This document shows, one piece after another, positions 44,976-55,687 of a stretch of DNA of 64,000 bases. Made by a program: the position numbers and the translations under genes. The stretch lies in NCBI RefSeq assembly GCF_003334255.1, contig NZ_QOWU01000016.1; one strand, given 5' to 3'. Each line of letters begins with the position of its first letter. The stretch's first letter is position 1. The stretch is from Escherichia coli (lineage in GTDB: Bacteria; Pseudomonadota; Gammaproteobacteria; Enterobacterales; Enterobacteriaceae). The notes beneath the pieces were generated by a model, which was given only the letters and a program-made list of their open reading frames with translations, was not told the DNA's origin and did not search any database.

Positions 44976-45674
44976 TTAAAATCTGGCGCTAACCCCCATC
45001 GTATACAGATAGTCGCTATTATTAGTGGTATTTTCTGCCTGAGTTAGCGCGGCATAGGCGGCAATATTTTGATTGAGCAACATATCAGCGCCTACGGTGA
45101 CATCCAGCCAGTTGCCGTTCTGGTTTGTCGCCGTCATCCGGCTCAGGCCTGATTGCGCCTTCCAGATATTCTCGCCAAATTGCTGGTTATAGCTGATTTG
45201 CGCCCAGGGTCGGAGATCGCCAAGCCGGGAGTCAACACGCCAGCCTAAGGTACTCACGCTGGCATGCCATAACGGATCGGTCAGCGTGGTAGTACTGTCG
45301 CCAAACTCGTTATACATCGAGGTGGTTGTGCCATCGTAATGTAATGCCGCGACCGGGCCGGTTGTAACCTGTTCATATAAAGGAAAATTCCAGCCCATAC
45401 TCATACTGCTGGTCACATCCACAGGGGTTTCTTCCGCCAGATTGACTTCCAGTCCCAGCGCCCTTTGGCTACTTTGAATACGTTGCGACAAAATATCGTT
45501 GTAATCAGGTTGATGATCACTATCCCAGGTGTAACGCTCTGTGGAAAGTCCGGGTTGCGTATCAACGATATATTCTTGTTGCCAGGCGTAAGCTGTGTTG
45601 AGAAAAAAGGCACTGATTACCACGCTCGCCAGCAGGCTTAGCTGCCAGCGACCACCGCTTTTTTTTATGATCAT
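44976..45674 (-). CDS. yhjY: putative outer-membrane beta-barrel protein (autotransporter beta-domain-like), 232 aa
   Basis: Signal peptide plus C-terminal aromatic residue (SARF); ATG at 45674 (ORF-track start 45680 is GTG). Confidence 0.8.
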   Translation of the reverse strand: MIIKKSGGRWQLSLLASVVISAFFLNTAYAWQQEYIVDTQPGLSTERYTWDSDHQPDYNDILSQRIQSSQRALGLEVNLAEETPVDVTSSMSMGWNFPLYEQVTTGPVAALHYDGTTTSMYNEFGDSTTTLTDPLWHASVSTLGWRVDSRLGDLRPWAQISYNQQFGENIWKAQSGLSRMTATNQNGNWLDVTVGADMLLNQNIAAYAALTQAENTTNNSDYLYTMGVSARF

Positions 45675-45831
45675 TAACACGACTCCAGGGAAGAGCCGAA
45701 TTCGGCAATATTATTGTCATTGTATGAAGGATATCGGGCATAGTAGCCCTGTATTAAATATTGACTTTTTCACCGATGCGTCAAGAAAAGCGGCTGAAAT
45801 TTTTACGATCGGGTACATAGCGAGGGAAAGT

Positions 45832-46395
45832 ATGGAACGTTGCGGCTGGGTGAGTCAGGACCCGCTTTATATTGCCTACCATGATAATGAGTGGGGCGTG
45901 CCTGAAACTGACAGTAAAAAACTGTTCGAAATGATCTGCCTTGAAGGGCAGCAGGCTGGATTATCGTGGATCACCGTCCTCAAAAAACGCGAAAACTATC
46001 GCGCCTGCTTTCATCAGTTCGATCCGGTGAAGGTCGCAGCAATGCAGGAAGAGGATGTCGAAAGACTGGTACAGGACGCCGGGATTATCCGCCATCGAGG
46101 GAAAATTCAGGCAATTATTGGTAATGCGCGGGCGTACCTGCAAATGGAACAGAACGGCGAACCGTTTGTCGACTTTGTCTGGTCGTTTGTAAATCATCAG
46201 CCACAGGTGACACAAGCCACAACGTTGAGCGAAATTCCCACATCTACGTCCGCCTCCGACGCCCTATCTAAGGCACTGAAAAAACGTGGTTTTAAGTTTG
46301 TCGGCACCACAATCTGTTACTCCTTTATGCAGGCATGTGGGCTGGTGAATGATCATGTGGTTGGCTGCTGTTGCTATCCGGGAAATAAACCATGA
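45832..46395 (+). CDS. tag: DNA-3-methyladenine glycosylase I (187 aa)
   Basis: Start at MERCGWVSQDPLYIAYHDNEWGVP (ATG 45832); C-terminal zinc-binding cysteines; the 266-aa ORF-track version is over-extended. Confidence 0.92.
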   Translation: MERCGWVSQDPLYIAYHDNEWGVPETDSKKLFEMICLEGQQAGLSWITVLKKRENYRACFHQFDPVKVAAMQEEDVERLVQDAGIIRHRGKIQAIIGNARAYLQMEQNGEPFVDFVWSFVNHQPQVTQATTLSEIPTSTSASDALSKALKKRGFKFVGTTICYSFMQACGLVNDHVVGCCCYPGNKP

Positions 46396-46832
46396 TTCGG
46401 GAAGCGCAACGTTCAGAACTCCCCGCGATCCTCGAACTGTGGCTGGAAAGTACAACCTGGGGGCATCCCTTTATAAAAGCGAATTACTGGCGTGACTGCA
46501 TTCCGCTGGTGCGGGATGCCTATCTTGCCAACGCGCAAAACTGGGTCTGGGAAGAAGACGGTAAGCTTCTCGGTTTTGTCAGCATTATGGAAGGCCGATT
46601 TCTGGCAGCGATGTTTGTCGCACCGAAGGCCGTCAGGCGCGGTATTGGTAAGGCGCTGATGCAGTATGTGCAGCAGCGCCATCCCCACCTGATGCTGGAG
46701 GTTTATCAAAAAAATCAACCGGCGATAAATTTTTACCAGGCACAGGGTTTTCACATTGTCGATTGCGCATGGCAGGATGAAACCCAACTACCCACATGGA
46801 TTATGAGCTGGCCGGTGGTTCAAACGCTGTAA
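46392..46832 (+). CDS. yiaC: GNAT-family N-acetyltransferase (146 aa)
   Basis: 146-aa ORF with 4-nt overlap to tag; acetyl-CoA binding motif RRGIGKALM. Confidence 0.88.
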
Positions 46833-49134
46833 GTGTCAGTTCCGGACCGTTGTATTTTTCCAGCCATGCCAGCGCCGTATTACCCGCACAGCCATTCCCC
46901 AGCCGCGAGCTGGGGAGATCTTTGGTCAGCACGTTCACTGCGCCGTTTTTACAAATACCGTCAGCGGTTAAATCCAGATCCGGCCATGCCCCTTCGTGAA
47001 TGCAAATCACGCCAGGTTTAATTCCCTCGCTAATGACCGCTCCGGCAAGAATTTGCCCGCGTGCGTTCCACAACCGAACAGTATCGCCATCTTGTATGCC
47101 GCGCTCCTGGGCATCGTCAGGATGAATGGTGACAGGCTCACGATTTGCCACCGCGTACAATTCGCGCAGAGAACTGTAATTCAGCTGGCTGTGCAGGCGG
47201 TGCGCCGGATGGGCAGAAAGTACCTGCAACTGTTCTGGTTCGGCATTGCCCTGCCATTCGTCCGGCTCCAGCCACATTGGATGCCCAGGGCAATCCGGGT
47301 AACCGTAATCGGCAATACGCTGTGAGAAGATTTCAATCTTGCCGCTGGCGGTTTTTAACGGATGCGCCAGCGGATCGCGGCAAAAATCAGCGAAGCGAAT
47401 AAACCGCTCGCTGTCCGGGTTTTCCGGCATCTCAATTAACTGGTTGGCTTGCCAGAACTCAGCAAATGGCGGCAATTCAACCTGCTGGCTTGCCCCGCGC
47501 TGTCGGGCAACGTTATAAAACGTTTCCAGCCATTGCAGCTCACTTTTTCCTTCCGTAAAACGTGCATAACCGCCCTTCTCCCAGCGTTCACTTAACTCGG
47601 CAAAAACATCAAAATCATTACGCGCTTCATAGCGTGGCGGCACCACTTGCTTCATCGGCACCAGATGCTGATTACTGTAATCACCGGTCATGGTGAGATC
47701 ATTACGCTCAAAAGAGGTAGTCGCAGGCAGAACGATATCCGCGTGTTTTGCCGCCGCCGTCCAGAAGCATTCAGAGATCACCACCAGCTCCGGTTTTTGC
47801 CAGGCACGGATCAGGCGATTGGTATCCTGATGATGAGTAAAGTTGGCACCGCCCGCCCACCAGATAAAACGAATATCCGGGAAATGTCGGTTCATACCGT
47901 TGTGTTGATATGCGCCACCAGGGTTTTCCAGTGCTTCAACAATGCGGGCAACAGGGATTTTATCCACCGCATCGCAGCCACCCGGCAAGCTGCCCTGCAT
48001 GGAAGAGAGCACCGCAGAACGCCGCGTGGGGTTACCACCATTGGCAAAATGGTAAGAAAGACCAAAACCGCCGCCGGGTGTGCCGATTTGCCCCAACATT
48101 GCTGCCAGCGTGACGATCATCCAGTGTTTTTGCTCACCAAACTGTTGGCGCTGCATTCCCCAGCCTGCCATCAGCATGGTGGTATTTTGGTGGAAAATAG
48201 CCGCCAGCTCGCGGATTTTCGCTGCGCCAACACCACAAATCTCTGCTGCCCATTCGGCGGTTTTCGCTATTCCGTCACTCTCGCCCAGCAAATAAGAGGC
48301 GAAGACGGCATAACCTGTGGTGCAACGCGCCAGAAACGCTTCGTCGTGCCAACCATTTTCCACCAGCGTATGGGCGATCCCCAGCATCAGCGCAACATCG
48401 GTGCCCATGTGCGGTGCCACCCACTCCATTTTATCGCCAAAGAAATCGACGGTTTCCGATCGCATTGGATCAATGCAGATCAGCTTTTTCCCGCTGTCAC
48501 GCAGTGCAGAAAAGTAAGAAAGCCCCTGCTCATCGGATGCATTCCACGCAATTTTCAGCGTATTGAGTGGGTTAGCACTCCACAGCACCACGACATCGCT
48601 ATGTTCCAGCACCAGCGGCCAACTGGTCTGCTGTTGATAAACTTCACTACCACCCACGACATACGGCATGATCGCCTGTGCCGCGCCGGTCGAATAATCC
48701 CCCAGATGCCCGGTATAACCGCCTGCCAGCGCCATATAGCGTTGTAATAATGTCGAGGCCTTATGCAGCACGCCGTTTGAACGCCAGCCGTAGGAACCAG
48801 CAAAAATCGATGCCGGACCATAAGCCTCACGAATGCGTTTATGTTGTTGGTGAATAAGATCCAGCGCCTCATCCCAACTCACGCGAACAAATTCATCCTG
48901 CCCACGAATGCCTTGCGGGTTTTCCGGTGACGCAAGAAAGCCTTTTCGCACCATTGGAAATCGTACCCGCGTATTGCTGTGAACCTGGTCGCGAACCGCG
49001 CTCTGCAAGGAGTTTTCCATTCCTGTGGCTAACGCGCCACGCGAGCTAAACACGGTTTCGCCGTCGGTTTCAACCAGCATGGGCCCCCAATGGGCGGCAG
49101 TCAGAACGGAATATCGTGAGGATGAGTTGGCCAA
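46801..49134 (-). CDS. bisC: biotin sulfoxide reductase, molybdopterin (DMSO reductase family) enzyme, 777 aa
   Basis: 777-aa ORF recognised as BisC; first codon in the ORF track is TTG (49134-49132); 3' end overlaps the yiaC 3' end by 32 nt. Confidence 0.9.
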
Positions 49135-49286
49135 ACCGAAGACTCCTGAAAGGTTAGATGTATTGAGCAGTTAAATATTACTTACAAATTTCCGAGTATT
49201 CCCAGGAATAATCTTCATGTTCACGCGGCATAATCTCCCGCCACGGAACCCGTGGCAAAGAATAAAAAGGTTATTAAGGATTAACA

Positions 49287-49946
49287 ATGAAGAAACGTGT
49301 TTATCTTATTGCCGCCGTAGTGAGTGGCGCTCTGGCGGTATCTGGCTGCACAACTAACCCTTACACCGGCGAACGCGAAGCAGGTAAATCTGCTATCGGC
49401 GCAGGTCTGGGCTCTCTCGTGGGCGCGGGTATTGGTGCGCTCTCTTCTTCGAAGAAAGATCGCGGTAAAGGCGCGCTGATTGGCGCAGCAGCAGGCGCAG
49501 CTCTGGGCGGCGGCGTTGGTTATTACATGGATGTGCAGGAAGCGAAGCTGCGCGACAAAATGCGCGGCACTGGTGTTAGCGTAACCCGCAGCGGGGATAA
49601 CATTATCCTCAATATGCCGAACAATGTGACCTTCGACAGCAGCAGCGCGACCCTGAAACCGGCGGGCGCTAACACCCTGACCGGCGTGGCAATGGTACTG
49701 AAAGAGTATCCGAAAACGGCGGTTAACGTGATTGGTTATACCGACAGCACGGGTGGTCACGACCTGAACATGCGTCTCTCCCAGCAACGTGCGGATTCCG
49801 TTGCCAGCGCGTTGATCACCCAGGGCGTGGACGCCAGCCGCATCCGTACTCAGGGCCTTGGCCCGGCTAACCCAATCGCCAGCAACAGCACCGCAGAAGG
49901 TAAGGCGCAAAACCGCCGTGTAGAAATTACCTTAAGCCCGCTGTAA
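49287..49946 (+). CDS. yiaD: OmpA-domain outer-membrane lipoprotein (219 aa)
   Basis: Lipobox LAVSGC, glycine-zipper region, C-terminal OmpA-like peptidoglycan-binding domain. Confidence 0.9.
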   Translation: MKKRVYLIAAVVSGALAVSGCTTNPYTGEREAGKSAIGAGLGSLVGAGIGALSSSKKDRGKGALIGAAAGAALGGGVGYYMDVQEAKLRDKMRGTGVSVTRSGDNIILNMPNNVTFDSSSATLKPAGANTLTGVAMVLKEYPKTAVNVIGYTDSTGGHDLNMRLSQQRADSVASALITQGVDASRIRTQGLGPANPIASNSTAEGKAQNRRVEITLSPL

Positions 49947-50049
49947 TCCCTTTCATGCCAGGTGATGCAGAAATCACCTGGCATTCTTCAGTTTTCCTTC
50001 ATCATATTTCAGGCTAAGGTGATCGCCTTATCAGTGAATGGAGAGAAGC

Positions 50050-52788: not shown

Positions 52789-53001
52789 ATGTCCGGTAAA
52801 ATGACTGGTATCGTAAAATGGTTCAACGCTGACAAAGGCTTCGGCTTCATCACTCCTGACGATGGCTCTAAAGATGTGTTCGTACACTTCTCTGCTATCC
52901 AGAACGATGGTTACAAATCTCTGGACGAAGGTCAGAAAGTGTCCTTCACCATCGAAAGCGGCGCTAAAGGCCCGGCAGCTGGTAACGTAACCAGCCTGTA
53001 A
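52789..53001 (+). CDS. cspA: major cold shock protein CspA (70 aa)
   Basis: [70 protein letters not shown]; RNP1/RNP2 motifs. Confidence 0.97.
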
Positions 53002-53187: not shown

Positions 53188-53340
53188 TTACTCTTTCAAT
53201 TTGCAGGCTAAAAACGCCGCCAGCTCATAACTCTCCTGTTTAATATGCAATTCACACAGTGAATCTCTTATCATCCAGGTGAAAAATAAAAGCGTGAAAC
53301 AAATCACTATTAAAGAAAGTAATCTATATTTCTGCGGCAT
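53188..53340 (-). CDS. hokA: Hok-family type I toxin HokA (50 aa)
   Basis: MPQKYRLLSLIVICFTLLFFTWMIRDSLCELHIKQESYELAAFLACKLKE from ATG 53340-53338. Confidence 0.85.
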   Translation of the reverse strand: MPQKYRLLSLIVICFTLLFFTWMIRDSLCELHIKQESYELAAFLACKLKE

Positions 53341-53442
53341 TCCCAGCCTCCTGTGTTGATTTCCAACGAGTGATTTATAGTCAGGTGGGGCTTTTCTCTG
53401 TCTGCCTTTCGGTGAATACCTGAGACAAACAGTCTCAAGCAC
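53188..53442 (-). CDS. mokA: mok-like overlapping reading frame (84 codons) in frame with hokA
   Basis: ORF starting MLETVCLRYSPKGRQRKAPPDYKSLVGNQHRRLG and ending at the hokA stop; functional status not determinable from sequence. Confidence 0.4.
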   Translation of the reverse strand: MLETVCLRYSPKGRQRKAPPDYKSLVGNQHRRLGMPQKYRLLSLIVICFTLLFFTWMIRDSLCELHIKQESYELAAFLACKLKE

Positions 53443-53470
53443 CCGTGGCTATTCTAGCTTAATAAGTTTG
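53400..53470 (+). ncRNA. sokA: expected Sok-type antisense RNA (sokA) opposite the mokA translation initiation region; boundaries not resolved
   Basis: Inferred from hok/sok locus architecture only; no unambiguous promoter or terminator identified by eye. Confidence 0.3.
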
Positions 53471-53570
53471 TTTCTTCTCCTTGATATAATCCTAAAAAAA
53501 TCTCATAAAATTAATATATGAGATAATCTTTATTCAGCAGAAGATTATTAAAGGTTGCTGTATTATTTAG

Positions 53571-53602
53571 CGATAAAAAAAGCCTGCCAGATGGCAGGCT
53601 AT
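53571..53602 (-). terminator. glyS rho-independent terminator
   Basis: Hairpin agcctgcc-agat-ggcaggct followed on the minus strand by a T7 run, 16 nt after the glyS stop. Confidence 0.7.
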
Positions 53603-53617
53603 TTAATAACGGCGTTA

Positions 53618-55687
53618 TTATTGCAACAGCGAAATATCCGCAACGCGCAGGAACAGTTCGCGCAGTTTCTCCAGCATGGTCAGACGGTTGATACGCAATT
53701 CTTTGTCATCAACCATGACCATCACTTTATCGAAGAAAGCATCAACCGGTTCACGCAGCTCAGCCAGTTCGACCAGCGCATCCTGGTAACGACCTTCCGT
53801 AAAGTACGGCTCCAGCTTGTCACGTAGCACCACAACCTGCATCGCCAGTTTAATTTCTTCCGGCTCTTTCAGGGTAGAGGCATTCACGCGGTCGCTCAGC
53901 ACTTCGTCAGATTTCGCCAGAATGTTAGATACACGTTTGTTCGCCGCCGCCAGTGCAGCAGCTGCATCCAGGGTACGGAAATGCGATACCGCTTTCATAC
54001 GGGCATCGAAATCAGCCGGACGAGTCGGACGACGCGCCAGTACCGCCTGGATGGTGTCAACGGTATAACCTTCGTCCTGATACCAGGCGCGGAAGCGACC
54101 GAGCATAAAGTCGATAACATCATCAACTACGTTGGCATTAGTCAGCTTATCGCCATACAGACGCACCGCTTCTTCGGTCAGCGTTTGCAGATCAAGGTTG
54201 AGGTTCTTCTCAACGATAATTCGCAGCACGCCAAGCGCGGCACGACGCAGCGCAAACGGGTCTTTGTCGCCTTTCGGATGCTGACCGATACCGAAGATAC
54301 CCGCCAGGGTATCCATCTTGTCAGCAATCGCCAGCGCACAAGCTACTGGGTTGGACGGCAGGTCATCACCAGCAAAACGCGGCTGATACTGCTCATTCAG
54401 CGCCACCGCGACATCTTCCGCTTCGCCATCGTGACGCGCATAGTGCATCCCCATAACGCCCTGGGTGTCGGTGAACTCGAAGACCATGTTGGTCATCAGG
54501 TCGCACTTAGACAGCAGACCCGCACGGGTAGCGTGGTTAACGTCAGCGCCAATCTGTTCAGCAATCCAGCCAGCCAGCGCCTGGATGCGGTCAGTTTTGT
54601 CGCGCAGCGTCCCCAACTGTTGCTGGAACAACACGGTTTGCAGGCGCGGCAGGTTATCTTCAAGACGTTTTTTACGGTCGGTGTTGAAGAAGAACTCGGC
54701 ATCCGCCAGACGCGGACGAACGACTTTCTCGTTACCGGAGATAATCTGCTGCGGATCTTTCGATTCGATGTTGGCAACGAAGATAAAGTTCGGCAGCAGT
54801 TTGCCGTCGTTCGCATACACCGGGAAGTATTTCTGGTCACCTTTCATGGTGTAAACCAGCGCTTCAGCCGGCACCGCGAGGAATTTCTCTTCGAATTTTG
54901 CGGTCAGAACGACCGGCCACTCCACCAGCGAAGCCACTTCTTCCAGCAGGCTTTCGCTTAAGTCAGCGTTACCGCCAATCTTACGCGCTGCTTCTTCGGC
55001 ATCGGCTTTAATCTTCGCCTTACGTTCTTCGTAATCGGCGATGACTTTCCCACGCTCACGCAGAATTTCCGGATACTGATCGGCGTTATCGATGGTGAAT
55101 TCCGGCTCGCCCATAAAGCGGTGGCCGCGAATCACGCGATCGGACTGAATGCCCAGAATGGTTGCCGGAATGACTTTGTCGCCCAGCAGCAGGGTCACGG
55201 TGTGCACCGGACGCACGAAGTGCACGTCGCTTGCGCCCCAACGCATCAGTTTCGGGATCGGCAGTTTCGCCAGAGAAGTCGCAACCATATTCGGCAGCAG
55301 TGCTTCGGTGCTTTCGCCCTTCACATGGGCGCGATACAGCAGCCATTCGCCTTTATCGGTAGTCAGACGCTCAGCCTGGTCAACGGTAATACCGCAACCA
55401 CGCGCCCAACCTTCTGCCGCTTTGCTCGGTTTGCCTTCAGCGTCGAACGCCTGGGCAATCGCCGGGCCGCGTTTTTCGATTTCACGATCCAGTTGCGCTT
55501 CCGCCAGGTTAGCTACTTTCAGCGCCAGACGACGCGGAGCAGCAAACCATTGAACGGTGCCGTGTGCGAGGCCAGCGTTATCCAGCTCCGCAGTAAAGTT
55601 CGCAGCAAAGGACTCAGCCAGGCTGCGCAGTGCTTTTGGTGGCAGCTCTTCAGTGCCGATTTCCACCAGAAAAGTTTTCTCAGACAT
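53618..55687 (-). CDS. glyS: glycine--tRNA ligase beta subunit (689 aa)
   Basis: 689-aa [34 protein letters not shown]... recognised as GlyS. Confidence 0.95.

Follow-up and report, generated by a model that had tools for sequence, protein, structure and literature searches.

Convergent coding overlaps have been accounted for by the model of Kingsford et al. (2007), summarised in PMC3887535, in which a 3' end is extended until a further stop codon is reached. Where convergent neighbours have overlapping transcripts they have been described as convergent excludons, and the ExcludonFinder report (Sanmartin et al. 2025, PMC12288877) lists 165 of these in at least 50% of 58 MG1655 RNA-seq samples, with yiaC-bisC among them. 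Compared with other neighbouring genes, excludon pairs as a class are reported there to be more syntenic and less co-expressed in single cells. On the other side of yiaC, a 4-nt overlap with tag has already been stated (Christensen 2018, PMC6199490); the same paper describes yiaC as polycistronic with tag and suggests a possible internal promoter. The gene products are likewise familiar from earlier work. YiaC has been published as a lysine acetyltransferase and lactylase (PMC6199490, PMC9636275), with its gene reported to be upregulated under oxidative stress (PMC6199490), and BisC is described in the literature as a biotin sulfoxide and methionine sulfoxide reductase.

Here we examine the tag-yiaC-bisC locus in a window of Escherichia coli DNA, by which we mean the whole 64-kb stretch analysed. 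The junction between yiaC and bisC is the annotated, published, and ordinary arrangement of E. coli K-12; it represents neither a new regulatory device nor new biology. We think it likely that the overlap of the two genes is a case of frozen packing, with a regulatory effect that is unproven and probably small.

The tag-yiaC-bisC arrangement and its surroundings

A 3.9-kb stretch around the three genes matches E. coli K-12 MG1655 with 100% identity, and the stretch is found in at least 5,420 of 5,426 complete E. coli genomes. The 121-nt junction of yiaC and bisC is at least 95% identical in every complete E. coli genome that carries both genes. All three pairs of gene coordinates given in a preliminary description of this DNA are correct (Table 1). 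That description had also proposed that tag and yiaC are coupled through an ATGA and that the 3' ends of yiaC and bisC overlap by 32 nt; re-translation and the RefSeq annotation of MG1655 agree with the ATGA coordinates, and both stop codons of the convergent pair were verified by re-translation and have the same coordinates in RefSeq. Neither yiaC nor bisC ends earlier when re-translated. The overlap holds the last 10 codons and the stop of yiaC, and the last nine full codons and the stop of bisC, with first codon positions of yiaC paired with first positions of bisC, second with third, and third with second.

Table 1. Positions of genes, junctions, and signals at the tag-yiaC-bisC locus, in window coordinates
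Feature	Positions	Strand	Basis or location
tag, DNA-3-methyladenine glycosylase I, 187 aa	45832-46395	+	RefSeq annotation; translation
tag stop codon, TGA	46393-46395	+	re-translation
yiaC, GNAT N-acetyltransferase, 146 aa	46392-46832	+	RefSeq annotation; Pfam on homologues; YjaB structure match; published abstracts
yiaC start codon, ATG	46392-46394	+	re-translation
yiaC stop codon, TAA	46830-46832	+	re-translation
ATGA, yiaC start on tag stop, 4 nt	46392-46395	+	sequence; PMC6199490
Convergent coding overlap of yiaC and bisC, 32 nt, TTATGAGCTGGCCGGTGGTTCAAACGCTGTAA	46801-46832	both	re-translation
bisC, biotin sulfoxide / free Met-S-sulfoxide reductase, DMSO reductase family, 777 aa	46801-49134	-	RefSeq annotation; structure alignment
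bisC stop codon, TAA	46803-46801	-	re-translation
bisC start codon, TTG	49134-49132	-	re-translation; annotation; sequence; 13/14 loci
AGGAG Shine-Dalgarno sequence, 8-nt spacer to TTG	49143-49147	-	sequence; comparison
Promoter-like match TTGCCA-17-GATTAT, 9/12, consensus match only	49230-49258	-	upstream of bisC
Candidate hairpin, G+C-rich, AUCUUUGGUC	46895-46917	+	consensus scan; -19.1 kcal/mol, z = -2.4

Ten convergent gene pairs are present in the window, and coding sequences overlap in two of them, yiaC/bisC by 32 nt and hokA/ysaE by 24 nt; the other eight are separated by gaps of 29 to 278 nt. By annotation, five same-strand junctions in the window have 4-nt overlaps (tag/yiaC, dppD/dppF, bcsG/bcsF, bcsF/bcsE, and bcsQ/bcsA). 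Convergent overlap is thus rarer here than the ATGA type, and yiaC/bisC is the only case between two genes of ordinary size. The second overlap lies at 53188-53211, between hokA, which the record places on the plus strand, and the small ysaE gene, and this pair likewise appears in the ExcludonFinder list (PMC12288877). Two further features were seen in the same part of the window. A coding sequence at 52789-53001 carries the name cspE in RefSeq record NZ_CP032667.1; we take its product to be the CspA sequence and its position to be that of cspA in K-12, and the name seems to be an oddity of automated annotation. A copy of IS150, with its programmed-frameshift transposase, occupies 53420-54789 between glyS and hokA, and is presumably the insertion adjoining the hokA locus that K-12 has been known to carry.

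Conservation of the convergent overlap and the frame under constraint

The arrangement was compared over 14 loci that contain bisC, representing seven named genera of the Enterobacteriaceae and two metagenome contigs. The Escherichia part consists of E. coli K-12, a divergent contig labelled E. coli, and four further species or clades of the genus; the remaining loci are those of Salmonella, Citrobacter amalonaticus, Enterobacter ludwigii, Kosakonia, Pseudescherichia, and Lelliottia, with the two metagenome contigs. A contig scan using YiaC alone returned Escherichia only, and the other genera were reached by protein search and contig look-ups; within the set, YiaC identity extends down to 52%. 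One Logan contig (L021) with a YiaC-like ORF (P0135) has only short ORFs, with no Pfam match, at the places expected for bisC and yiaD, and its translation does not reproduce the query protein. Either the locus is degraded or the assembly is of low quality, and the contig was left out of the comparison.

The convergent overlap of yiaC and bisC is present in all 14 loci, which stem from one ancestral arrangement and are non-independent observations; its length is 32 nt in 11 loci and 38 nt in three. Each stop codon is written into the other gene. Read on the opposite strand, the junction between the YiaC Ile137 and Met138 codons, inside the conserved motif TWIMxW of the last beta-strand, is the stop of bisC; ATT ATG, ATC ATG or, in one contig, GTC ATG yields a TAA or TGA there. 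The yiaC stop arises in the same way from a conserved Leu-Thr codon junction in BisC, where CTT ACN or CTC ACN yields a TAA or TGA in yiaC. At the loci with the longer overlap (Kosakonia, Lelliottia, and one metagenome contig) the Leu-Thr codons read CTG ACG; a CTG codon for Leu abolishes the yiaC stop, yiaC runs two codons longer, and the overlap becomes 38 nt. Because each stop lies inside conserved codons of the partner, neither can be moved without altering the other protein, and the two stops are mutually locked by conserved residues. A chance pattern of open reading frames is ruled out by the near-universal presence of both genes in E. coli and the retention of the overlap in 14 of 14 bisC loci.

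Which of the two frames is constrained can be read from the mean column entropy per codon phase, computed over the 14 loci. In DNA coding for yiaC only, entropies are 0.42, 0.32, and 1.03 for yiaC positions 1, 2, and 3, and in DNA coding for bisC only they are 0.24 and 0.18 for bisC positions 1 and 2 and 0.96 for the wobble position 3. Within the overlap, the value is 0.12 where the first positions of both genes coincide, 0.58 where yiaC position 2 meets bisC position 3, and 0.17 where yiaC position 3 meets bisC position 2. The pattern therefore changes from a yiaC type to a bisC type on entry into the overlap, somewhat damped. The protein tails can be described in the same terms. The BisC tail, LTAF[DE]PPA[SN][SPA], is well conserved over the loci, and the YiaC tail past W140, [PQRL][VA][VDG]QT[LPR], carries second-position variation that is silent or conservative in bisC. 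The BisC frame thus dominates the constraint on the overlap, with the last six YiaC residues behaving as a passenger tail that follows wobble substitutions in bisC.

The lengths of both proteins are what would be expected of their families. The 199 C-terminal residues of BisC align with the DMSO reductase and TMAO reductase structures 1eu1, 1dms, and 7l5i (E = 1e-55 to 1e-58), and the C-terminus falls within two to three residues of the solved chain ends of DMSO reductase and TMAO reductase; PF00384 and PF01568 (molybdopterin oxidoreductase and molybdopterin-dinucleotide-binding, respectively) were found on the 777-aa Salmonella orthologue, as is proper for this family. For YiaC, close homologues match the GNAT families PF00583, PF13673, and PF13508, and the YjaB structure 2kcw is matched at E = 5e-13. 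Distant YiaC homologues recovered in a full-library search lose similarity at the residue aligned with W140-P141, and in 69 full-length single-domain homologues the tail beyond W140 is 1 to 19 residues long, with a median of 6, which is the length of the YiaC tail. Judged against these relatives, neither YiaC nor BisC is longer than the family norm. As the C-terminal lengths are family-typical, the overlap is no recent run-on extension; it is better described as a tight tail-to-tail packing, with a sequence-tolerant YiaC tail placed antisense to the end of BisC.

Loci that carry tag and yiaC without bisC point to the order of events. In four distant loci (L017-L020), with YiaC 42-44% identical, tag-yiaC adjoins glyQS as in E. 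coli and bisC is missing; yiaC is followed by a gap of 460-550 nt and then by a 2-hydroxyacid dehydrogenase gene, or by GDT1 and yiaD-like genes. In these loci tag and yiaC are still tight, with a 4-nt overlap or, in one locus, a 6-nt gap. The tag-yiaC pair is thus probably the older unit, and the overlap appears to be present wherever bisC adjoins it.

Translation starts of yiaC and bisC

The junction of tag and yiaC varies over the same loci. It is ATGA in E. coli and E. albertii, and TAATG, a 1-nt overlap, in E. whittamii and Escherichia sp. E1V33; in Salmonella, Citrobacter, Enterobacter, Lelliottia, and Pseudescherichia the overlap is 23 nt, and in Kosakonia it is 20 nt. Outside Escherichia (L007-L014; for example, L007:3501-3523) a 1-nt indel shifts the tag frame, giving a Tag protein of 192-193 aa and the overlap of 20-23 nt with yiaC. 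Across the loci compared, the junction is always tight, but its exact geometry varies. Ribosomes that finish tag could re-initiate on yiaC, although the Shine-Dalgarno sequence of yiaC in K-12, GGGAA, is weak. This translational coupling of tag and yiaC is something we infer from the general behaviour of ATGA junctions.

The preliminary description had noted that bisC appears to begin with TTG, and this reading holds up well. TTG is the annotated start, it is conserved in 13 of the 14 loci, and inspection of the region upstream of position 49134 for a ribosome-binding site located an AGGAG 8 nt away (Table 1). It is also the only canonical start upstream of the conserved HWG motif in the open frame, and in 13 of the 14 loci TTG is either the sole start upstream of this motif or stands at the conserved position. 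Upstream of it, AGGAG or CAGGAG is kept in all genera compared. The BisC proteins of Salmonella and C. amalonaticus have Ile or Val in place of Met19, so that no alternative ATG is available there. The TTG start thus has good comparative support, and translation of bisC would begin at a weak, conserved codon with a strong AGGAG in front of it. A literature search on the TTG start of bisC found no relevant report, two seeming matches being a name in a reference list and an FNR site. A different sequence was seen in the contig labelled E. coli SCPM-O-B-8794, from a divergent Escherichia lineage (YiaC 89% identical), which has TTA at the bisC start (L004:6241-6243, minus strand) and no canonical start left upstream of the HWG motif; this may be a loss of the start codon, a sequencing error, or a sign that Met19 is used.

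Transcript ends, regulation, and likeness to described systems

Because the coding sequences overlap by 32 nt, full-length yiaC and bisC mRNAs are unavoidably complementary over at least 32 nt, and transcriptional interference between yiaC and bisC, as had been suggested, is plausible. The locus has convergent neighbours with overlapping transcripts, as the 32-nt coding overlap and the published listing both indicate, and in this sense it is a convergent excludon. A functional excludon would be more than this, in that transcription of tag-yiaC and of bisC would mutually repress through polymerase collision, RNase III cleavage of the duplex, or both, and a protein acylase and a sulfoxide-repair enzyme would then be expressed mutually exclusively. 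The place of yiaC-bisC in the ExcludonFinder core set, the synteny and co-expression behaviour of the class, the retention of the overlap in all bisC-containing loci sampled, and the link of both genes to oxidative stress are consistent with this explanation, and conservation of the overlap between genera could also reflect selection for antisense regulation. Nonetheless, we consider a functional excludon unlikely. The listing of yiaC-bisC reflects coverage overlap only, and the single-cell co-expression figures are those of the class; moreover, because the coding sequences themselves overlap, the transcript-boundary criterion is satisfied automatically and listing is near automatic whenever both genes are expressed. 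According to PMC12288877, convergent pairs did not lend themselves to validation of double-stranded RNA with p19. The overlap holds no conserved RNA family or structure, and 45000-50000, scanned against Rfam at E <= 1, matched no known sRNA or cis-element. The same conservation data fit the stop-codon lock, and locking together with the coding constraint on BisC would be a sufficient explanation of them.

The nearest terminator-like site is a hairpin on the plus strand that begins 63 nt past the yiaC stop, within the bisC codons for LPSSRLGN, and has a poor U tail; it is a possible, weak candidate for a yiaC terminator. The hairpin is kept in most loci and weakened in Salmonella, C. amalonaticus, Kosakonia, and Pseudescherichia, with one compensatory pair. 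We considered it as a conserved RNA structure and rejected this, as the coding of LPSSRLGN in BisC explains the conservation and one compensatory pair is insufficient. A more elaborate proposal, that the overlap and this hairpin together form a selected antisense module for reciprocal expression of YiaC and BisC in oxidative stress, with the hairpin acting as a terminator embedded in coding sequence that fixes the length of the antisense part, strikes us as distinctly improbable.

Bidirectional terminators between convergent E. coli genes are reportedly common in SEnd-seq work, and a single hairpin in or near the overlap could in principle end both convergent transcripts, the plus-strand hairpin described above being the obvious candidate. 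Such shared termination, which the preliminary description had also raised, is not borne out. Consensus scanning and folding found no hairpin with a T run in or across 46780-46850 on either strand, and the arrangement sought, a G+C-rich hairpin flanked by A and T tracts between or across the 3' ends, is absent from this interval on both strands. The candidate hairpin lies beyond the overlap, and its U tract is poor on the plus strand and absent on the minus strand; it is also upstream of the bisC stop, so that minus-strand termination there would cut bisC short. Past that stop the minus strand has a single U7 run, at 46708-46714, and no convincing G+C-rich stem precedes it. We therefore regard a shared bidirectional intrinsic terminator as very unlikely, and infer that both transcripts must end within the partner gene, by weak intrinsic or Rho-dependent termination. 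As a separate observation, the minus strand at 46560-46700, antisense to yiaC, folds at -52.8 kcal/mol (z = -3.5, with none of 200 shuffles as stable), and the fold includes a near-perfect hairpin, GGCGCUGCUGCA...UGCAUCAGCGCC, that has no U tail.

That the overlap is an annotation artefact, with yiaC or bisC ending earlier or not being a gene at all, can be dismissed with near certainty, given that both stops are read straight from the sequence, both C-termini are conserved between genera at the protein level, the BisC end matches those of solved homologues, the length of YiaC is typical of its family, and both proteins have been subjects of experimental work.

The reading we favour is thus that of frozen packing. 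bisC is packed tail-to-tail on yiaC with zero intergenic DNA, and the overlap would be a frozen by-product of this and no dedicated device; within it the BisC frame sets the constraint, and the six-residue YiaC tail changes with the bisC wobble.

The packing has practical consequences for the construction of mutants. Because 32 nt are common to both genes, a clean deletion of either yiaC or bisC can damage the other; a yiaC deletion that extends to the last codons takes the stop of bisC with it, and a bisC deletion of this kind takes the end of yiaC. This is relevant to phenotypes ascribed to deletion of yiaC (acetylation and lactylation) or of bisC (methionine sulfoxide). In the engineered and sequenced bisC deletion strain E. 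coli BE104 (NZ_CP040643.1, 3846980-3847225) yiaC is intact, because its stop is followed by 8 nt before the deletion begins; some 40 nt from the 3' end of bisC remain, along with a 153-nt 5' piece annotated as a pseudogene.

Set against described systems, the two junctions of yiaC compare as follows. The tag/yiaC junction resembles other ATGA operon junctions, the commonest type of overlap, in lying on one strand with an ATG that shares bases with the TGA; it departs from a fixed geometry in that the spacing differs between genera. Pairs with bidirectional intrinsic terminators are likewise convergent, and yiaC/bisC has no spacer between its genes, but a hairpin with A and T tracts is absent around the overlap. 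With the convergent excludons of ExcludonFinder, yiaC-bisC shares convergent orientation, overlapping transcripts, and an explicit listing; in contrast to pairs whose transcripts overlap through long 3' UTRs or leaky terminators, its transcript overlap is obligatory and comes from the coding sequences. The Kingsford model is likewise one of tail-to-tail overlaps of tens of nucleotides, and the poor conservation of YiaC residues 141-146, which track the bisC wobble, agrees with it. Unlike a net extension, yiaC/bisC would be a case in which a dispensable tail was replaced upon juxtaposition, and it is stable in at least seven genera. It thereby offers a worked example of dual-coding constraint, in which one frame is dominant and the tail of the other protein is a passenger.
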